Sequence record: OR544954
Length of the DNA stretch: 64,000 bases
Reading direction: 5' to 3' (one strand)
From: Escherichia phage vB_EcoM_EP32a
Shown piece by piece: positions 4,692 to 22,060 of the stretch. Within the stretch, counting starts at the first letter, position 1. Every line of letters starts with the position of its first letter. The notes under the pieces were generated by a model that had not been told where the DNA came from, made no database searches, and saw only the letters and a list, made by a program, of their open reading frames with translations. The position numbers and the translations under genes were made by a program.

Positions 4692-6425
4692 TTACCCAAT
4701 ATCAATACGAGATCCGTCAACAGTGTATTGTCCTGAAGCTACTGAGCTCATTGTAGACATTGTTTCTGCCCAATCCCCTGCAACAGTCATATCAACATTA
4801 CCGTTAACAGTCCATTTAACGTTTCCGTTGACGGTGTAATCATGATTCCCTTCGACCTGAGTTTTAGCATCACCTTTAACAAGAATATCTGCATTTCCGT
4901 CAACAACTATTTTGATATTCCCCTTAACGTAAAGAGTTCCATCACCTTCAACAGTTTTAGTTTGATTACCACGAATAAAGATTGTGTCATTGCCGTCTAT
5001 TTGATGGAGGCGGTCTGCCATGTTATAATATATTTCATTAGCGCCAACGTTAACAAGCTTATCGCCAGAAATCAAGAAGTTCCCATCACCATTAGTGATG
5101 TCATAAAGGTCTTCTACAGTTTTACGAGTACGACGCCCGGACGGAGAAACTTCCTCATATGACCCTGTTGGATGAACTAAGCGATAACGTTCATTACCTG
5201 GAGTATCGTCAAATTCTTGGATATGACCACTTTCTGTTTCCATAGCATGAACGTATGGATACTCACCACGATAACTTGATTCTGGTTCTTTAAAAAGGAT
5301 GCGTGAATCTAATGGAACAGGAGGACCAGCCGGGTCTTCTGAATCGGTATTTCTAGTAACTAAATCGGCACCAACTCCTGGTGAAGGAGGTGTTTTAACA
5401 GGAACACCGTATGATTCCATATTACCTGTTAAAATAATTGTTGTTACACGTGAAGCGCGTCCTTTAGTCTGTTGGAACCATAATGAATCGCGCCCAGATT
5501 TGTATGCAGTTTTCCAATCACCTTCGGCCATTGCTTTAAGCATAGTATTGAATTTTGCTACACCACCAACGCCCATTTGGAAGCACATGTTTTCTAATGC
5601 CATTTGGCGAGATCTGTTCATTTTAGCATAAACAGGACCCACTTTAGAATTAGAACGAATGTCTTTCTGCATCTTAGCAAGGTCTTTCTCAAATAACGCT
5701 GTTGCTTCTTCTAATGTAATAGTCCCGGGATTTCCTGTTACTTCACGCCCTACTTGATCAGATAACAATTTATTAATTCGAGACATATCTCGGGTCTTTT
5801 CCATTACGATAAGGTGTCCAATACCTACTGTAGGATACCCGAGATGGTCCCAATACACTTTATCACGAAGACCTTCGTCACGACGTAACATTTCTGTTAT
5901 TGTAAAATTAGGGTCATCATCTTCTGGAATATTTGCTAAATCTGTATCATCTGGGTTTATACCATAATCCAAGTTGTTATCTTGAATTACGTTAGAGTTC
6001 GAATAATAACCAGCTTCACCACCTTGGTTTAATACGTTCGTATCATTACCTAAACGTCGTGGATATTGACCTGTAGGGTCGGAAAAACCTTCGAGTCTAT
6101 TAGGCTTTTCGCGTACAATTCCACCGTATGTACCGAGTACAATACCGTTTGTTTTCCATTTGTCTAAGAAATGACCATATACTCTAGTTCCTTCAACAGG
6201 ACCTGTAACAGAACCACCAATACCTGACATTGACGCAGACGTAATAGGTTGAATAACAGTCATCCACGGAAGTTTTTCTGTAGGAATACCTTGTACGTCA
6301 CCTTGTGCTCTCTGTGCCGGATGAAGACCAACGACTCGAACTCGAACTCGCCCTTGTTTTAATGGGTCCATTCTGTCCTCGACAACACCAACGAACCAAT
6401 TAAGGCTACTGCTAATCATTTCCAT
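4692..6425 (-). CDS. 5: baseplate hub / tail lysozyme gp5
   Basis: 577 aa; internal lysozyme-like segment (GYPTVGIGHL); C-terminal beta-helix repeats (VxGNxxxTVxGN). Confidence 0.92.
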   Translation of the reverse strand: MEMISSSLNWFVGVVEDRMDPLKQGRVRVRVVGLHPAQRAQGDVQGIPTEKLPWMTVIQPITSASMSGIGGSVTGPVEGTRVYGHFLDKWKTNGIVLGTYGGIVREKPNRLEGFSDPTGQYPRRLGNDTNVLNQGGEAGYYSNSNVIQDNNLDYGINPDDTDLANIPEDDDPNFTITEMLRRDEGLRDKVYWDHLGYPTVGIGHLIVMEKTRDMSRINKLLSDQVGREVTGNPGTITLEEATALFEKDLAKMQKDIRSNSKVGPVYAKMNRSRQMALENMCFQMGVGGVAKFNTMLKAMAEGDWKTAYKSGRDSLWFQQTKGRASRVTTIILTGNMESYGVPVKTPPSPGVGADLVTRNTDSEDPAGPPVPLDSRILFKEPESSYRGEYPYVHAMETESGHIQEFDDTPGNERYRLVHPTGSYEEVSPSGRRTRKTVEDLYDITNGDGNFLISGDKLVNVGANEIYYNMADRLHQIDGNDTIFIRGNQTKTVEGDGTLYVKGNIKIVVDGNADILVKGDAKTQVEGNHDYTVNGNVKWTVNGNVDMTVAGDWAETMSTMSSVASGQYTVDGSRIDIG

Positions 6426-14074: not shown

Positions 14075-14668
14075 ATGAACACACTGAAGAAACTTGTTGA
14101 ATTCATCCGCACTAAACTGGGTACTGCTATGGCTAAAAATCTGACTGTCGAAGAACAGTATAACGCAGCTGCAGATAAGTTGATTACCCAAATCAAAGAA
14201 CTAAAAACGGCTTCTGTTAAATCTATTAATGAAGAAAAACGTATTCGCGAACTTGTTAATGAAAAGAATAAGCAAGCCGCTTCTAAGGAACGTGAAATTC
14301 GTAAGCTCCTGGCTGAAGGACAAGATGTTACTATGCATGCTAAGCTTGGTCTTCTGTATCGTCGAACTGCCGAACAACTTAATACAAAAGCTGACGGGTA
14401 TGCCGCTATGCGAATTGAAATTGCTCGTAAGGTGGTTGAACTTGATGATGCTCGTCAGAATCTGGCAATCAAACTCGAATACATTCGTGAAACTCGAGCA
14501 GCCAATGCCCTTGGTATCTCTACGGCTGATGATGTAATTGAAATCGCTGCACTGACTAAGGTTGATATCGAAGACACTCTGACTCGTGTTGAAACGTTCA
14601 ATGGCACTCCAGCCGGTGTCGAAACCACTTCTGCTGATGTACAAGAATATATTAACTCTTTGAAATAA
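14075..14668 (+). CDS. hypothetical coiled-coil protein
   Basis: 197 aa, alpha-helical and charged. Confidence 0.55.
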
Positions 14669-14717
14669 AATAATACGGAGGACTCCGGTCCTCCTTTTGG
14701 ATAATAAAGGAGTTAAC

Positions 14718-15320
14718 ATGCGAAACCAAAATAATGATATTGACTCAATGTTCGAAGAGTTCCGAAATAAGGTAAATCCACCTACGTCTTTAGTTGATTC
14801 ATTACGATATGTTGCAACTGGACGTAAATGGTACTGGTCGTCTTCTTATGAGACTACTGAGAAAACGGCCAGCCATAGCAGAAAATCTTTATTAGCCCCA
14901 GGTATTATGATTCATGATATCGGAGCTATTGCTAAACTAGTTGCAGACCATGATATTAGATTCACTGATTTCGTTGCTCCTACGTGGTCTGTTTGTTGTT
15001 TAAACACTGAATGGGAATATATCAGCGAACGCTCTAAAGATTATTATGGTTTTAGAGACAAGCTTTTAAGGTCTAACATGTTTTATATTGATACAGAAGT
15101 TCTGGTCAATAATAAAAAATACTACTTCACTTTAATCATCGATTCTGAAACTATGTATGAAGGCAAGCCTTTGCTTAAGAGAGTTGATGCTTTAAGTGCT
15201 ATTGATGCGCTTTATGAAACTATGGTTGTTAGTCCTAATTTCACTAACAATTTAATCCTTGAGCAATTTATTATGGAATGTAGAGAATATGTCAAAGCCA
15301 ACCCTATACATGCCAAGTAA
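14718..15320 (+). CDS. hypothetical protein
   Basis: ATG after AAGGAG; 200 aa. Confidence 0.55.
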   Translation: MRNQNNDIDSMFEEFRNKVNPPTSLVDSLRYVATGRKWYWSSSYETTEKTASHSRKSLLAPGIMIHDIGAIAKLVADHDIRFTDFVAPTWSVCCLNTEWEYISERSKDYYGFRDKLLRSNMFYIDTEVLVNNKKYYFTLIIDSETMYEGKPLLKRVDALSAIDALYETMVVSPNFTNNLILEQFIMECREYVKANPIHAK

Positions 15321-15684
15321 GCCCTGGGCGTATGAATACAAGCGTAAATTAATCCCAAATGAAGTACTATTTGGCCCTATTTTAGCTTTAGCATTTTTAA
15401 TCTTTATGATTATAGGAGCTGTTTTAGATTCTAGTGAAGTTATATCGTCTGATGCAGCATTTTCATTAATGTTCGTCGCACCACTTATTGTACCGTTTTT
15501 ATTAATGCCTATTAATTGGGTAGGATATTGGCACCAAGGCCGTCATCACAGAGCCCGATTAAGAGAATGGAAAGTTCAGTGCGCAAAAGCCCAAGCTCAG
15601 TATGATGAAGCTGTTAAAAAGTATGAATATGAAGAAGCTATGGAATTCGTTAAGGAAATAAGATGCAAAAGCCTCAACTCTTAA
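15289..15684 (+). CDS. small membrane protein, C-terminal FVKEIRC motif (family member 1)
   Basis: Hydrophobic N-terminal segment; start uncertain (15289 or 15310). Confidence 0.45.
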   Translation: MSKPTLYMPSKPWAYEYKRKLIPNEVLFGPILALAFLIFMIIGAVLDSSEVISSDAAFSLMFVAPLIVPFLLMPINWVGYWHQGRHHRARLREWKVQCAKAQAQYDEAVKKYEYEEAMEFVKEIRCKSLNS

Positions 15685-16022
15685 CCGTATGGCCTTCTCT
15701 TGGTGAGAACATTCTAATTTTTATTATGAGTATTGGCATGGGATTTGCCTTTGGATTAGTTGGATTTCTTATTGACGGCGTTGTGTTAGGATTTATAGGG
15801 AACACTGGTGGATTCACAGACCAATGGCAGGACTTACGGTACACCCAAGCCTTTGCATCCATCGCATCATTTTGTACTGTAGTCTATTTTTACTACGATT
15901 TTATAAACCACAACAAGAAAAATAAAAAGGTTTACGCTTCTCAAATGATTAGTTATAATGAACTCCTAGCTAGACGTGAAAATGAAACAATCGAAAACTT
16001 TATTAAGGAATGTAGAAAATGA
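15663..16022 (+). CDS. small membrane protein, C-terminal NFIKECR motif (family member 2)
   Basis: TM-like segments, then ...ENFIKECRK. Confidence 0.55.
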   Translation: MQKPQLLTVWPSLGENILIFIMSIGMGFAFGLVGFLIDGVVLGFIGNTGGFTDQWQDLRYTQAFASIASFCTVVYFYYDFINHNKKNKKVYASQMISYNELLARRENETIENFIKECRK

Positions 16023-16324
16023 GTAAGATTATTGAAATTAAAGTACCAGAGTTTAATGATGCCAAATCCGCTTCAGATGCAATTTATAAACTTCTGAATC
16101 AAGCTGAACGTATCGAAGAAGAAGCAACAAAGATCGCAGACCAATATGCCGTATCATTTTCTGTAGGTGATTATGGTAGCGGTCGTACTTATTATCCTAA
16201 GGGTGAAATCGTATCCCAGTGGATGAAAGATGAAATTGAAAATAATGGCGGCGATGTTAAGCGTGAAGGTAATGGATACGTTATTACTGAAGGTGCTTGG
16301 GTTTCGTCTTCTGCGTTGTGCTAA
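16019..16324 (+). CDS. small protein, C-terminal GAWVSSSALC (paralog 1 of 3)
   Basis: 101 aa; tandem with 16334 and 16616. Confidence 0.55.
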   Translation: MSKIIEIKVPEFNDAKSASDAIYKLLNQAERIEEEATKIADQYAVSFSVGDYGSGRTYYPKGEIVSQWMKDEIENNGGDVKREGNGYVITEGAWVSSSALC

Positions 16325-16333
16325 GGAATCATT

Positions 16334-16606
16334 ATGTCTAAAGAACAAACCGAACTGGCTGAAGCTGTAGCAAAAATCTATGCAGCTATTGAGGCTGCCA
16401 AAGAAATTGCTGATAAACAAAACACAACATTCAACTTGTACCCAGCTTATGGTATGGGTGGAACCTATCATTCACCCGGACATCTTAAAGCCGATCTTGA
16501 ACGTTGTACAAAAAACGGCTATGCTGAATGGGCTGACGTTTACCAATACGACTACAACCTGAGCCTCGAAACTGGTGGTTGGGTCGCATCTTCTCACACT
16601 TGCTAA
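16334..16606 (+). CDS. small protein, C-terminal GGWVASSHTC (paralog 2 of 3)
   Basis: 90 aa. Confidence 0.55.
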   Translation: MSKEQTELAEAVAKIYAAIEAAKEIADKQNTTFNLYPAYGMGGTYHSPGHLKADLERCTKNGYAEWADVYQYDYNLSLETGGWVASSHTC

Positions 16607-16615
16607 GGAAACAAT

Positions 16616-16813
16616 ATGTCTCGTGAATTAGATTGTGCTGTACGTACGGCAGTAGCTGCTCTGGAAAACCTGTTCCAAATTGCAACAGAAGAACGCGAAG
16701 AAGTTACATTATGGATTGAAGATAACGCAGGTCTGAATCTCCAGGACGCGATCTCATTATCCCACAATAGTATCACTGTTCAAGGCTGGGTATCATCTAG
16801 TTATTCTTGCTAA
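16616..16813 (+). CDS. small protein, C-terminal QGWVSSSYSC (paralog 3 of 3)
   Basis: 65 aa. Confidence 0.55.
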   Translation: MSRELDCAVRTAVAALENLFQIATEEREEVTLWIEDNAGLNLQDAISLSHNSITVQGWVSSSYSC

Positions 16814-16815
16814 AA

Positions 16816-16856
16816 CAGTTTACAACAAGATAGGGCTATGTTATAGTAGTCCTATC
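16816..16856 (+). promoter_or_regulatory. T4-type early promoter with flanking inverted repeat
   Basis: GTTTACA ... TATAGT in palindrome ATAGGGCTA/TAGTCCTAT. Confidence 0.5.
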
Positions 16857-16875
16857 AAAACAAATGGAGTCCACA

Positions 16876-17115
16876 ATGATTTATTACGAAAGTATCGGAA
16901 CCAAAGTGGTTGGCAAAACCATTACTCGTGAAAAGTTTGCAAAGATATTCGATATGCGTTATAAAAAATCTGAACACAAAGGCATCCGATTCGAAGATGC
17001 GCACTGTACAATTTGCCCTTATAATGAAGACATAAACGGTACAATCGTTCCATTGGTAGAAGCTTCACATGATGACCTCTGGGATGAATATAATATCGCA
17101 TGTCGTGAAATTTAA
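16876..17115 (+). CDS. hypothetical protein
   Basis: ATG after GGAG. Confidence 0.5.
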   Translation: MIYYESIGTKVVGKTITREKFAKIFDMRYKKSEHKGIRFEDAHCTICPYNEDINGTIVPLVEASHDDLWDEYNIACREI

Positions 17116-17143
17116 GTTAATGAATTAATCCGAGGAAAATATT

Positions 17144-18100
17144 ATGATGTTAGTTATTGGTTCTCGTGCACTTCACTATCACGGTCTTATTGATTCTAGC
17201 GCTATCAAAAATAGTGATTGGGACTTTATTGCGGACCAAGGTTCTTGGAATGCATTCAAAAATCAAATGATGGGTGTATATGTCCACCAAGATAACCCTG
17301 ATGTCCAAGTTTTCAAATGCTTCCATAATGGTCGCGAAACTCATTTTGAAGCATATATTGTTCCGGCAATCACTAATGTCCGTGAATTAGTCGGTGAACT
17401 CACTCCTGAAGATTTCACATCTTCTTATGACCTTTTAAAATACGCCAAGAAAAATTTGACTAAAGACCGTTTGAACGGGTTTTACTGGGCAACTCCTGAG
17501 ATATGTCTTGCAATTAAGATGTCTCATCGTTTCAAGAAAAATAATCCATTCTTTTTAAAGACTATGAACCATATTCAGTATCTTCGTGGTAAAGGTGTTA
17601 CACTGAACGATGAACTTACTGAAATTATGCTGAAACGCCAAAAAGAAACTTTGAACTATGCTCACCCTGTTCTTGACACTTCTAAAAGTGCGTTCTTTAA
17701 AGATGACATCTATACATATGACCATGATACTATTCACGAAGCCATTGCACTAACAGACCGTCCGGCTTATATGTTTTACATGAAAGATGGTTCTGAAGTC
17801 ATGACCTCACGCGAGAAGTTCGAATCATTACCGGAAATGGTCAAATTGGCCGGTGTATATGAAGAATCATGTGTACTAGCATTAGAACGTTCTCAGATTC
17901 CTAACGACTTTAAAATCCATCCACGTGATAGTTTTATGATGGCCCTTGAAAAGGTCTGTACATCAATCACATCAGGATGGTTCCGTGAGTTCGCTTGGGA
18001 AAATTATAGCAAAGTAGTAAGTATGTACCAAAGCTTAGGACACGACGATTACGTCAAGCGTTTCAAACAAAACTTTCATATGGTAAAACCTTTCAAATAA
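17144..18100 (+). CDS. hypothetical 318-aa protein
   Basis: Long ORF in the hyperplastic region; no family recognised by eye. Confidence 0.6.
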   Translation: MMLVIGSRALHYHGLIDSSAIKNSDWDFIADQGSWNAFKNQMMGVYVHQDNPDVQVFKCFHNGRETHFEAYIVPAITNVRELVGELTPEDFTSSYDLLKYAKKNLTKDRLNGFYWATPEICLAIKMSHRFKKNNPFFLKTMNHIQYLRGKGVTLNDELTEIMLKRQKETLNYAHPVLDTSKSAFFKDDIYTYDHDTIHEAIALTDRPAYMFYMKDGSEVMTSREKFESLPEMVKLAGVYEESCVLALERSQIPNDFKIHPRDSFMMALEKVCTSITSGWFREFAWENYSKVVSMYQSLGHDDYVKRFKQNFHMVKPFK

Positions 18101-18110
18101 TTTCACAAAA

Positions 18111-18150
18111 CAGTTTACAAGGTCTGTAGTTGTTGATACTATAGACCTAT
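18111..18150 (+). promoter_or_regulatory. T4-type early promoter with flanking inverted repeat
   Basis: GTTTACA ... TACTAT; AGGTCT/AGACCT. Confidence 0.5.
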
Positions 18151-18180
18151 CAAAACAAATGAGTGAATGGAGATATAAAA

Positions 18181-18381
18181 ATGACTACTTTGAATAAACG
18201 TTTCGGTAAAGCTAAACCTGGTTGTGCAGCAGAACGTCGTTATGTTTTCGCTCAGTTAGAAGATGTAGAGTATCAGATTAATCAAGTTCACATTACTGGT
18301 ATCGAGCCTATGTGTGGCCTTGAAGCTCTTCGTGAAGTTCGTGATGGGTATCGTCGTGACATCGAAGAAATGTCAAAATAA
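18181..18381 (+). CDS. hypothetical protein
   Basis: 66 aa. Confidence 0.5.
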   Translation: MTTLNKRFGKAKPGCAAERRYVFAQLEDVEYQINQVHITGIEPMCGLEALREVRDGYRRDIEEMSK

Positions 18382-18420
18382 GTGTACAAACTGATAGGAC
18401 TATGTTATAGTAGTCCTATT
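18382..18420 (+). promoter_or_regulatory. T4-type early promoter with flanking inverted repeat
   Basis: GTGTACA ... TATAGT in palindrome. Confidence 0.5.
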
Positions 18421-18439
18421 AAAACATGAGGAGAATATT

Positions 18440-18745
18440 ATGAAATTAGGCGAAACCAACCGAATTGGTCTTTTAACAATATTTGTATCACTTTTTTACG
18501 CAGCTCTTTCTGTTGCAGTATTACAAAAGGCTTACAGTATGGATGGTGTTCCTGGTTGTATATTTTTATCACCATTTTTGCTATTCGTTGGAGCTTTGTT
18601 ATTATATGCCACGTCTGGTTTCGACAATAATGTCTGGGTCAATTATAAACGTAAATTGTCTGAAGAAGAACACGCAGAAGCTCGTAAAAAAGCTATTGAA
18701 TCTACCAATCTAGAAAATTTCATTAAAGAATGTCGAGGAAAATAA
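18440..18745 (+). CDS. small membrane protein, C-terminal NFIKECR motif (family member 3)
   Basis: Two hydrophobic segments, then ...LENFIKECRGK. Confidence 0.55.
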   Translation: MKLGETNRIGLLTIFVSLFYAALSVAVLQKAYSMDGVPGCIFLSPFLLFVGALLLYATSGFDNNVWVNYKRKLSEEEHAEARKKAIESTNLENFIKECRGK

Positions 18746-18789
18746 TATGAATAGTTCTAAAGTGTTTAATAGTCAAGCTCGTGCAGTAG

Positions 18790-19347
18790 GTGGTTTTGCT
18801 CACGCGATTAAAAATGACCAGATTAAAAACGAGCCTATGTTCTTCAACTGTAGTATTTGATTCACGAGTCCATATGCTGATGCCTGGTTGGTATCCTGCT
18901 ATTCCAGGTTATCACCATGACGATGTACCACGCCCGGATATTCCAGTTGGTCAACACTTTATTACTGCAGGACAACCTGACTATGACAATCCTCGCTATT
19001 TGTCTGAACACATTCTTGGTCTTGTTAACGCTGATGTGTGTCCTACTCATTTTGCAACAGGAACTGCAGAGTTCAGTCAGATTCCTGATGGCGAACTTAT
19101 CTATCGCCAGTGGCACAAAGAAGTCCTCGAAAAAATCGAAAAAGGTGAACTAGAGAAATGGGAAGCTCCGGACCGTACTCTTCTTCAGTTTGATTGGCAA
19201 ACATGGCACACTGGTTCTCGTGCAATTAGTAATGGATGGCGTTGGTTCGGACGTGTATCTCGTAATACAGACCGAGTTAAAAAGATTACCAATGAAATTC
19301 GTGTCAATGCTCAAGTTTATCTGGAATTCCCTATGGAAGGCTGGTAA
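18790..19347 (+). CDS. hypothetical protein (start uncertain; possible frameshifted N-terminus)
   Basis: ORF in a +1 frame relative to the short ORF 18747-18860 that has the good start context. Confidence 0.4.
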   Translation: MVLLTRLKMTRLKTSLCSSTVVFDSRVHMLMPGWYPAIPGYHHDDVPRPDIPVGQHFITAGQPDYDNPRYLSEHILGLVNADVCPTHFATGTAEFSQIPDGELIYRQWHKEVLEKIEKGELEKWEAPDRTLLQFDWQTWHTGSRAISNGWRWFGRVSRNTDRVKKITNEIRVNAQVYLEFPMEGW

Positions 19348-19838
19348 TGATTAACAAAACATATTGGTCTAATATTGACGACGGCAATGAAGGTATTTCA
19401 TACTATTCAGTAGATTGGACAGGATGTCCATCCTACTTAGTGAAACGTATTTGCCAAGAATTTAAAATCGACCAGCCAGCAGGTATTATCGTGAACAGAT
19501 ACATTAATGGATATCAACCTATCGATGAAGTAATACGAACAACTCAAGCTGAGCTTGAAAAGTTTTTCAATAAGTGCCAATGGATAACAGGATGGATTAT
19601 ATTTGTACCGTCTATATGGTTTTTCAGTACTAAGGTGAGTTCTTTCGGTTTTGTTGATATTATTGCTATCTTATTAGCATCTACTATCGTAAGTATTATT
19701 GGCGGTATAATTGGTGGAGGTACTGTAGGCATCATTATTAATCTTATTAAAAGTAGTTTACAAGAACATAAAGACAAGATAAAAGCCAAGAATAATGAAG
19801 TTGAACGTTTTATTACCGAATGCAGGAATTTGAGATGA
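19347..19838 (+). CDS. membrane protein, C-terminal RFITECR motif (family member 4)
   Basis: Hydrophobic core with GGIIGGG, then ...VERFITECRNLR. Confidence 0.55.
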   Translation: MINKTYWSNIDDGNEGISYYSVDWTGCPSYLVKRICQEFKIDQPAGIIVNRYINGYQPIDEVIRTTQAELEKFFNKCQWITGWIIFVPSIWFFSTKVSSFGFVDIIAILLASTIVSIIGGIIGGGTVGIIINLIKSSLQEHKDKIKAKNNEVERFITECRNLR

Positions 19839-20071
19839 GTATAGCAATTTACATTAAATCAGAATCATGTGATAGTTATCTGTACACATACGATAAAGAT
19901 GTGTCAGAAGAAAAAATCAAAGACGACCTTAATACGGATCTTGATATGTTCTGTCCTATTGCAGATTACAAACTTGCGGTCTCTAATAGTGAAAGTCCAT
20001 CTAAAGAAACGCGCATTGAAGAATTTATGTCCGAATTAATGGCCAAATCATGGGACCGAGATGATGAGTAA
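19835..20071 (+). CDS. hypothetical protein
   Basis: 78 aa. Confidence 0.45.
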   Translation: MSIAIYIKSESCDSYLYTYDKDVSEEKIKDDLNTDLDMFCPIADYKLAVSNSESPSKETRIEEFMSELMAKSWDRDDE

Positions 20072-20519
20072 GAAAAATAAAGTGAAAGAACTATCAGCCG
20101 GTATTATTTTCCTTACCGAAGATAAAGAATTATTCATGGGGCGTGTAACTGGTTCTCGTCCTAAAGGTTCTTTAGCTCATCGCTGGGATATTCCTAAAGG
20201 ACGTGTCGAGCCCGGTGAATCTCCTATTGAAGCCGCTATTCGCGAATGCGAAGAAGAAACTGGGTTTACACAATATGACCCTGCCTTCCTGAAAGACCTA
20301 GGTGAACATCATTACTCAGACAATAAGAATATTCATCTGTTCCTATATACCATCCCTGTAGAGCACGAGCAATTCAGAAACAGTGCTTGTAATTCCTATC
20401 ATACATTCCCAGACGGACGACAGATTCCTGAATTTGATGCGTTCGCTTTAATTAAACCTTCTCAATGGGAATATGTAATGGGCAAATCATTATATAAGGT
20501 GCTCACTACCCTCCTATAA
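20061..20519 (+). CDS. nudE: Nudix hydrolase NudE (e.1)
   Basis: Nudix box GRVEPGESPIEAAIRECEEETGF; directly upstream of e. Confidence 0.85.
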   Translation: MMSKKNKVKELSAGIIFLTEDKELFMGRVTGSRPKGSLAHRWDIPKGRVEPGESPIEAAIRECEEETGFTQYDPAFLKDLGEHHYSDNKNIHLFLYTIPVEHEQFRNSACNSYHTFPDGRQIPEFDAFALIKPSQWEYVMGKSLYKVLTTLL

Positions 20520-20553: not shown

Positions 20554-21042
20554 ATGAATATATTTGAAATGCTTCGTAATGACGAAGGTCTTAGACTGAC
20601 TTTATACAAAGACACTGAAGGCTTTTGGACGATTGGCATAGGCCATTTAGTAACAAAGAACCCATCTTTAGCCGTAGCTAAAGCTGAACTTGACAGAATG
20701 ATCGGACGTAAATGCAACGGTACAATTACCCTTGATGAGGCTGAAAAGCTATTTAATGAAGACGTTGATAAAGCTGTTCGCGGAATCTTGGGTAATGCTA
20801 AACTTAAACCGGTATATGATTCTTTAGATGCAGTTCGTCGATGTGCATTGGTCAATATGGTCTTCCAAATGGGTGTAACAGGCGTCGCCGGTTTTACTAA
20901 TTCTCTTCGTATGCTTCAACAGAAACGTTGGGACGAGGCGGCAGTAAATCTAGCCCAATCTAAATGGTACCGTCAGACACCTAATCGCGCGAAACGCGTA
21001 ATCTCAACATTTAAAACAGGAACTTGGAAAGCGTATATATGA
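20554..21042 (+). CDS. e: endolysin (T4 lysozyme e)
   Basis: [32 protein letters not shown]..., near-identical to recalled T4 lysozyme. Confidence 0.95.
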
Positions 21043-21320
21043 AAACATATAGTGAATTTTTATCAGAATCTATTCTTAACGAAGCTACTGACACATTTGC
21101 AACTAAGCTAGGTGCAGCTTTGGTTGAAGCTGAAAGTCTATTAGCACGTATTTCTGAACTTGCTAGTAAGATAGATACTCGCAAATTTGAACGTACCAGC
21201 GATATCGCTAAGCTTGAAGCCTTGTTGCGTATGTGTGATAAACCGGAAGAAATCGCTAAGAACGGCTCGCTGATGAAACAACGTCTTGAAAAATATATTT
21301 CAGGCGCTTCAGAAAAATAG
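21039..21320 (+). CDS. internal protein with capsid-targeting leader (ipII/ipIII position)
   Basis: [10 protein letters not shown]... leader; ATGA overlap with e stop. Confidence 0.7.
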
Positions 21321-21799: not shown

Positions 21800-22060
21800 A
21801 TGAAAATGTATCAAGAATTTATCATTGAAGCAGATGCCAAAGACCCTAAATTTAAAGTTAAAGCTTTCATTGGTGATGCGGAAGACTTTGGCTCATTAAA
21901 ACGTAATGGGTATTCTTTCTTAGGTGGTGATGGTAAAGAAATCAACACCTATGCAAAACGTAGTGAAATTGCTTATGTTGTAGTAAGTCCTAAAGTAGAT
22001 GTTGACGATATTGGATACGATTTTAACAACTTCGGAATTATTTCTGGCGGTAAAGCTTAA
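21800..22060 (+). CDS. internal protein with capsid-targeting leader
   Basis: MKMYQEFIIEA leader; 86 aa. Confidence 0.65.
   Translation: MKMYQEFIIEADAKDPKFKVKAFIGDAEDFGSLKRNGYSFLGGDGKEINTYAKRSEIAYVVVSPKVDVDDIGYDFNNFGIISGGKA

Follow-up and report, generated by a model that had tools for sequence, protein, structure and literature searches.

A short C-terminal protein motif recurring in five early-region genes of an RB69-like, T4-type phage

We analysed a stretch of 64,000 nucleotides from Escherichia phage vB_EcoM_EP32a (sequence record OR544954; one strand, 5' to 3', hereafter the window), and in particular five genes within positions 14,718 to 19,838 whose products carry a common short motif at or near the C-terminus. 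Over 14600-20100 the window shares 98.5% identity with Escherichia phage APCEc01, and 128 further records cover at least 80% of this region; its best matches are RB69-like T4-type phages and include phage 55, which is assigned to Mosigvirus. Judged by these matches, the window is an RB69-like Mosigvirus. Hidden Markov model (HMM) matches and synteny give the gene order on the + strand as e.6, e.5, e.4, e.3, a 3.3-kb insert, e.2, a gene of 78 codons, nudE, e (lysozyme), an internal-protein-like gene and denV; the genes e.5 to e.2 sit between e.6 and nudE/e on the same strand, as they do in T4 save for the insert. The same two lines of evidence identify the membrane protein genes studied here as Mosigvirus versions of T4 e.4, e.3 and e.2, together with an insert gene at 18440-18745, which we call the 18440 gene. 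The five carriers of the motif are as follows.

14718..15320, + strand: homologue of T4 e.5 (phrog_2607, E=7.6e-96; 47% identity to T4 e.5), 200 amino acids
15289..15684, + strand: homologue of T4 e.4 (phrog_2604, E=2.7e-64), 131 amino acids, two transmembrane (TM) segments
15663..16022, + strand: homologue of T4 e.3 (phrog_2330, E=4.5e-50), 119 amino acids, ending ENFIKECRK
18440..18745, + strand: extra, Mosigvirus-specific copy (phrog_9798, E=2.7e-64), 101 amino acids, two TM segments
19347..19838, + strand: full-length homologue of T4 e.2 (phrog_2203, E=3.7e-55), 163 amino acids, ending ERFITECRNLR

A first-pass annotation, made from the sequence alone, had described the last four of these open reading frames (ORFs) as small membrane proteins with a shared ending. 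All four are found at the coordinates it gave and each has strongly hydrophobic segments in 19-residue Kyte-Doolittle windows: two each in 15289-15684 and 18440-18745, one long segment in the e.3 homologue, and two overlapping windows within one hydrophobic region in the e.2 homologue. The shared motif is likewise real and beyond chance, but its fifth copy, in 14718-15320 just upstream of the range first described, was overlooked. This e.5 homologue is soluble, with no hydrophobic segment by the same measure; its motif, FIMECR, is encoded at 15267-15284, its C-terminus reads ...EQFIMECREYVKANPIHAK, and the 11-residue tail after the motif overlaps the next gene. The C-termini first quoted were correct for the ORFs at 15663, 18440 and 19347, but not for that at 15289, which ends ...EFVKEIRCKSLNS rather than FVKEIRC. 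In this e.4 homologue the motif FVKEIR (15646-15663) lies in a predicted cytoplasmic tail and its arginine codon overlaps the next ATG; T4 e.4 has the N-terminus MSKPSLYLPSKP, and the phage 55 annotation places the start at a later ATG (window 15310). The e.3 homologue consists of a membrane hairpin and a long C-terminal helix, with the motif at 15999-16016. The 18440 gene is the first after an early-promoter/stem-loop repeat and its product ends LENFIKECRGK (motif at 18719-18736). In the e.2 homologue, a soluble domain at the N-terminus precedes a membrane hairpin and the tail that carries the motif (19809-19826); e.2 orthologues are present in SP18, JS98 and Q7622.

The motif can be written as hydrophobic-x-x-F-[I/V]-x-[E]-[C]-[R/K], with hydrophobic positions at i, i+3, i+4 and i+7. 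In the six-frame translation of the 64 kb, the pattern F[IVLM].E[CI]R has exactly five matches, all on the + strand and 1-11 residues before a stop codon, against an expectation of 0.31 matches on average in Markov simulations (maximum 3 in 200) and 0.08 in residue-shuffled real ORFs. A 10-residue position-specific scoring matrix gives the five copies 26-30 bits and the next best match in the window 12.3; run over the complete T4 genome, the same matrix finds only e.5, e.4, e.3 and a remnant of e.2. That these genes share the motif at the protein level is, in our judgement, very probable.

Two origins had been offered for the shared ending, either a membrane family of paralogues or a conserved junction sequence that imposes the peptide, and it had been suggested that the junctions be compared across relatives. 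We made this comparison at the codon level with 34 motif copies from 11 genera, some counts being taken from the first 21 copies only; the sample comprises Mosigvirus, Tequatrovirus, Gaprivervirus, Dhakavirus, Kanagawavirus, Jiaodavirus, Karamvirus, Ishigurovirus, Tulanevirus and two Pseudotevenvirus phages. Amino acids are kept and synonymous codons are free. Third positions vary at F, I/V, C and R: phenylalanine is encoded by TTT in 23 copies and TTC in 10, cysteine by TGT in 11 and TGC in 16, and arginine by both CGN and AGR codons (CGT 10, AGA 9, CGA 5, AGG 4, CGC 1). Two paralogues in Q7622 both read FVKGCRNG, with four synonymous differences between them. The residue 'x' before the glutamate, which encodes the Shine-Dalgarno (SD) sequence of the following gene, is the least conserved position, with 10 different codons in the first 21 copies. 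Finally, five copies retain the motif although the next start is distant, by 298 nucleotides (nt) in e.4 of KP179, 155 nt in a second e.5-like gene of Aeromonas phage 65.2, 103 nt in AS-gz, and 71 nt in both Miller and GWPR59. Because synonymous codons vary, the SD position is the least conserved, and the motif persists far from start codons, a peptide imposed by the junction sequence is ruled out; selection on the motif acts on its amino acids.

The junctions nevertheless leave their mark on the codons that encode it. The first-pass annotation had the motif codons overlap an AAGGAA SD sequence and the start of the next gene in each case, and this is so at the 15663 and 16019 starts; at 18747, however, the SD is GAGGAAA, from Arg-Gly-Lys codons, and at 19835 it is AGGAA, from Arg-Asn codons. 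The distance from the arginine codon to the next ATG is -1 nt in e.4, 2 in e.3, 10 in the 18440 gene, 8 in e.2 and 4 in e.5, and since it differs in this way between copies the register of motif and start is not fixed. Stop and start codons overlap as ATGA at 16019 and 19835, and the genes overlap by 22 nt at 15663 and 32 nt at 15289. With the motif at gene ends in so tightly packed an operon, its codons also supply the SD sequence and spacer of the next gene. Where the ATG follows within 5 nt of the arginine codon, 'x-E' is usually AAG GAA or GAG GAA and is itself the SD, and lysine stands at 'x' in 10 of 13 copies; where the distance is 8-10 nt, 'x' is unconstrained (T, I, Q) and the SD is formed by AGG, AGA or CGA with a purine-rich next codon, lysine occurring in one of the eight copies whose start is at least 8 nt distant. 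It is the 'x' residue and the arginine codon that the ribosome-binding site of the next gene biases, not the core of the motif.

These regularities are what might be said for regarding the motif as a by-product of conserved junction nucleotides, whether SD, spacer and start or some other RNA or DNA signal: the next ATG lies -1 to +10 nt from the arginine codon in 17 of the first 21 copies, AAG GAA (K-E) serves as SD at several junctions, and lysine at 'x' goes with a short distance to the start. However, besides the free third positions and the distant starts described above, the SD-coding codon is the most variable, the SD shifts to other codons as the spacing changes, and other overlapping junctions in the window, for example those of genes ending W-V-S-S-S-x-x-C*, yield quite different peptides. 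We consider such an origin highly improbable. Neither a promoter nor a hairpin was detected at any of the five junctions.

The junction sequences matter in a different way, as sites of recombination. SP18 has AAAGGGGTTCAAAATG at the junction of its e.5-type gene with e.4 and TAAGGAGGTTCGTAATG at the junction of e.4 with e.3; in JS98, e.4 is absent exactly from ATG to ATG and one hybrid junction remains. The endpoints of this deletion are two repeats that SP18 contains, each 16-17 nt long and reading AAGG(R)GGTTC(R)(N)AATG. At such repeated junctions recombination can cleanly add or remove a single gene, a real evolutionary consequence of their similarity that does not account for the conservation of the motif. 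Shuffling of cassettes through promoter/SD repeats is documented for T4-type phages (PMC2839356), and one might go further and suppose that the 3' end with its ribosome-binding site is mainly a recombination boundary, like the edge of one of the early-promoter/stem-loop (PeSL) cassettes of these phages, from which 3'-end capture or gene conversion carries the motif into further genes without any need for a protein function. The clean loss of e.4 between two junction repeats, the published shuffling, the occurrence of the motif on unrelated N-terminal parts and the hyperplastic nature of a region containing PeSL-type repeats would all suit this explanation. Yet the copies at 15999 and 18719 differ at 4 of 24 nt, at synonymous sites, and such differences within one genome show that no gene conversion has taken place recently; the JS98 crossover fell in the SD-spacer-ATG repeat, downstream of the motif on the e.5-type side; and F and C could not be so deeply conserved, through 11 genera, without purifying selection on the protein. 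We therefore think it improbable that a recombination boundary is the main explanation.

That depth is clearest in the neighbourhood of e.6, a gene present in 1109 phage records. In all 11 genera inspected, the product of the gene directly downstream of e.6 is soluble, is 180-316 amino acids long and has the motif near its end, and when 12 such e.5-like proteins from the 11 genera are aligned, only the F and C of the motif are invariant, R/K being next best. The motif gene adjacent to e.6 spans Tevenvirinae (to which Karamvirus also belongs), Emmerichvirinae and three further genera of the family. In Enterobacter phage myPSH1140 it corresponds to an unannotated e.5-like ORF of 221 amino acids downstream of e.6 (~5657-6322), ending ...SDFINYCRGQIAKRTRNEQSDSD. 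Small membrane carriers were seen only in enterobacterial genera; Karamvirus has as many as four of them in tandem. From the presence of the motif next to e.6 in all 11 genera it follows that it is ancestral to the e.5-type protein; the fast-evolving small membrane proteins of the same transcription unit share it by descent or by capture.

Pfam, NCBIfam and PDB sequence searches with the five proteins gave nothing above threshold. For the e.5 homologue, word-indexed and exhaustive searches returned 3 matches each, and an AlphaFold model from the single sequence (predicted local distance difference test score, pLDDT, 38) was too poor to use. The e.3 family has 81 members that we could find; a scan of IMG/VR with e.3 gave two loci only, and an alignment of 45 of its proteins includes the motif F among only 3 invariant columns. 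An AlphaFold2 model of e.3 built from 45 sequences (pLDDT 81) has helices at residues 13-44, 51-56 and 59-118, the second TM segment being part of one unbroken helix that reaches residue 118, where pLDDT is ~90; compared with viral structures by Foldseek, it matched e.3 relatives and generic helical hairpins only. Some records label e.3-family proteins 'sulfurtransferase', and 'DNA primase' and 'head outer capsid protein' have each been used once; none of these labels has HMM support, and all are probably propagated misannotations. The 18440 protein has 7 relatives only among 5.8 billion proteins, all at least 75% identical to it, and a weak match to the e.2 family phrog_2203 (E=1.9e-4).

The four membrane carriers are built to one plan, two hydrophobic helices followed by a C-terminal tail of 29-50 residues that ends in the motif. 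The tails contain 8-11 lysines and arginines and the loops between the TM segments 0-1, from which the positive-inside rule predicts an N-in/C-in topology with the motif tail in the cytoplasm. This common architecture raises the possibility that all membrane carriers are one family of two-TM proteins, paralogous over their whole length through tandem duplication, and that the motif is merely its best-conserved part. The sizes (100-130 amino acids), the predicted hairpin and the tail agree with this, as do profile-profile comparisons with the motif included, which give probabilities of 79-93% among the e.3, e.4, e.2 and 18440 families. Similarity between e.3 and e.4 even survives the removal of motif and tail (hhalign probability 73%, score 32.9, over the second TM segment and helix, against a maximum score of 22.4 for unrelated T4 membrane proteins), and their N-termini have the common form M-x-K/R-P-x-L. 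The 18440 protein and two proteins of Karamvirus give weak matches to the e.2-family HMM over TM region and tail (E ~1e-4), and the window's e.2 matches Q7622 gp135 by BLASTP with E=3e-7, albeit in a very small database. Against a single family, every pair other than e.3-e.4 falls to 13% or less once the motif is removed, which is background, since unrelated T4 membrane proteins reach 21%; TM segments match by composition, which inflates weak scores; and the motif also occurs on soluble, unrelated-looking domains, namely the e.5 type and Q7622 gp142. Whole-length paralogy of all membrane carriers thus strikes us as possible but rather unlikely, although the similarities make a common ancestry of the scaffolds plausible for e.3 and e.4 and perhaps also for e.2 and the 18440 protein. 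The first-pass annotation had named similarity confined to the last 20 nt, with no relationship in the TM regions, as the outcome that would refute its proposal, and at the protein level this is largely what we find, with the exception of e.3 and e.4. The data fit a short protein motif placed on partly unrelated or strongly diverged scaffolds, whose codon choice has been co-opted by an overlapping ribosome-binding site.

Taken as a whole, the locus is probably best explained as five co-transcribed early proteins with a common C-terminal helix motif that is selected as protein and has a role in docking or assembly. The first part of this explanation is the firmer; that the motif helix is a protein-protein docking or assembly element we would put at an even chance or slightly less. 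In the four membrane proteins the predicted cytoplasmic tail runs on from the last TM helix and ends in the motif, and the e.5 homologue carries the same motif on a soluble domain. The motif helix might then bundle the carriers together, or attach all of them to a single partner on the inner side of the membrane, for which e.6, an e.5-type protein and a host factor are candidates, and the outcome would be a conserved soluble protein and variable small membrane proteins tethered in one complex. We propose e.6 as a candidate from its synteny. A more specific version, in which the motif is a docking tag through which an ancient e.5-type protein and a changing set of inner-membrane proteins bind e.6, a host factor or each other, the last as a helical bundle with a layer of invariant cysteines, is offered tentatively and is less likely. 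The invariant cysteine of e.5-type proteins hints at a more specific role still, for example with a metal or as a covalent intermediate.

Proximity to the C-terminus could also suggest a tag for proteolysis, either a degron or a cleavage site of the prohead-protease type, that controls turnover or release. With a small residue after it, the I-x-E of the motif is similar to the T4 gp21 site and to the EFIxE core of capsid-targeting sequences; MKTYQEFIAEAR occurs in T4 IPI and MKMYQEFIIE in a window ORF. But all five Q7622 copies lack the glutamate, and other genera have Y, S, R, G or D in its place; between 0 and 25 residues follow the motif; capsid-targeting sequences are N-terminal; and the conserved residues F, C and R/K differ from the cleavage consensus. 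We regard a protease tag as very unlikely, and a gp21 site or capsid-targeting sequence in the strict sense was rejected because of the C-terminal position and the unconserved glutamate. A membrane-targeting amphipathic helix of the MinD/FtsA type, which calls for a high hydrophobic moment, a net positive charge and positive mean hydrophobicity, was also rejected, the hydrophobic moment of the motif helices being 0.16-0.65 and their mean hydrophobicity -0.51 to +0.02, with several acidic residues. Nor do the sequences support e.6 as a PspA/IM30-like protein with the membrane proteins in the place of PspB/PspC, hhalign giving a probability of 0.3% against E. coli PspA.

Several observations weigh against a common docking or assembly role. 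The conserved glutamate is missing from several Karamvirus copies as well as from those of Q7622; its joint absence from the Q7622 copies is suggestive of lineage co-variation, but the Karamvirus copies are mixed and we do not rely on it. Some membrane copies have V, I, M or S instead of the cysteine, which makes the motif degenerate outside the e.5-type proteins. In a Mosigvirus contig from IMG/VR (L007, 5991-6090), an internal deletion and frameshift have cut e.3 to its last 30 codons, and T4 e.2 is interrupted by two in-frame stops, so that e.3 and e.2 are dispensable in some phages. The e.6 protein gave no match in Pfam or in a PDB profile search and belongs to no family that we recognise; its apparent link to the motif is one of synteny, and both the docking interaction and the partner are putative. 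Lastly, a common ancestry of the membrane scaffolds is not demonstrable in general from their sequences, and convergence or 3'-end capture by recombination is possible.

Roughly half the genes of T4, the best-studied large phage, are without known function, the e.2-e.8 block included. That T4 ORFans should fall into small families is unsurprising, but the deep conservation of the motif beside e.6 and its occurrence on soluble and membrane proteins alike make the hypothesis testable, and with a motif linking e.5, e.4, e.3 and e.2, five hypothetical proteins that had stood apart can be tested as one unit. Dual coding is also clearly illustrated here, since the ribosome-binding site of the following gene has shaped the free positions and the codon choice of a selected peptide; the repeated junction permits clean deletion of single genes as well. 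If the docking-tag reading were true, T4-like phages would carry a modular system in which a conserved activity is tethered to the cytoplasmic face of the membrane via interchangeable anchors.

The remaining features of the neighbourhood are these.

14075..14668, + strand: e.6 homologue without the motif (phrog_1203, E=4.6e-87), a conserved helical protein of 197 amino acids
14677-14694: strong terminator-like hairpin GGAGGACTCCGGTCCTCC followed by a T-run, directly 3' of e.6 and 24 nt before the e.5 start
16816-16870, 18110-18165 and 18383-18435: intergenic PeSL-like repeats with SD and ATG downstream

The three repeats have a -35 box TTTACA/TGTACA, a -10 box like TATAGT and an inverted repeat (e.g. 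ATAGGGCTA...TAGTCCTAT), the promoter-like sites with stem-loops lying at 16819, 18114 and 18383 (the last at 18383-18411), and by sequence they look like the PeSL cassettes of T4-type phages. Three tandem paralogues of phrog_899 (16019-16324, 16334-16606 and 16616-16813, + strand) each end in W-V-[S/A]-S-S-x-x-C, and TAAGGAA and the next ATG come immediately after; five genes of this type occur in SP18 and copies also in Q7622 and myPSH1140. The variable region thus holds a second family, phrog_899, whose members share a motif at the C-terminus. Between 18747 and 19347 (+ strand), a frameshifting deletion of 86 bp relative to an intact gene of 228 codons in phage 55 has left an ORF of 37 amino acids and another of 185, and because the frameshift splits the reading frame the gene is probably a pseudogene in this phage. 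Internal-protein-like genes at ~21039-21320 and ~21800-22060 (+ strand) begin with capsid-targeting-like sequences, one of them MKMYQEFIIE; their EFIxE core resembles the motif, and it is a resemblance only.

Among known systems, the closest is T4 itself. By HMM matches and synteny, the window genes are direct homologues of T4 e.5, e.4, e.3 and e.2 (PHROGs 2607, 2604, 2330 and 2203, described as hypothetical or predicted membrane proteins), and the T4 proteins carry the same motif as KFVKECREY..., KFVKESRC..., EFVIDCRKIK and, in the disrupted e.2, NFITECRKLK. The window differs from T4 in the 3.3-kb insert between e.3 and e.2, with its extra Mosigvirus-only motif copy at 18440-18745, and in having an intact e.2. 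In T4 (NC_000866, ~67491-67960, - strand) e.2 is annotated with 102 amino acids, but the frame runs on through two stops to a second TM segment and NFITECRKLK; judging from the reading frame, T4 e.2 looks like a nonsense-disrupted copy of the gene of 163 codons seen in the window. The annotated start of T4 nudE (MQEIKMKTLSAG..., ~67490) is an ATG inside the motif codons of this remnant, GA-ATG-CAG-G, and an ATG 15 nt downstream (MKTLSAGIIF) is the one that aligns with nudE of other phages.

The motif junctions also share features with three other arrangements. In the PeSL cassettes of T4-type phages (PMC2839356, PMC4122927), boundary repeats that include SD and start can likewise act as crossover points for single ORFs; the motif junctions differ in having neither the sigma-70 early promoter nor the stem-loop that would stand immediately before SD and ATG, in lying inside coding sequence and in being conserved as protein and not as DNA. 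Translationally coupled overlapping genes offer a second parallel, in that stop and start overlap or abut and the SD comes from K-E or R-x codons of the motif. Coupling accounts for the codon bias and the frequent lysine, but not for the conserved F, I/V, C and R. The third is the T4 capsid-targeting sequence with its gp21 site, MKTYQEFIAE, which is cut after the E, the consensus being I/L-x-E and then the cut. Its core E-F-I-x-E, followed in IPI by a small residue and then R, is similar to the motif, and internal-protein genes lie in the same variable region; but it is cleaved off from the N-terminus, its glutamate is essential and cysteine plays no part in it, so that the likeness is one of appearance only. 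Our limited search of the literature found no description of e.2-e.6 function or of a shared motif, and PHROGs and the source annotations file the carriers as separate families with no function given. Set beside these records, e.2 to e.5 are already known T4 ORFs, and the 18440 gene is a new, lineage-specific member.

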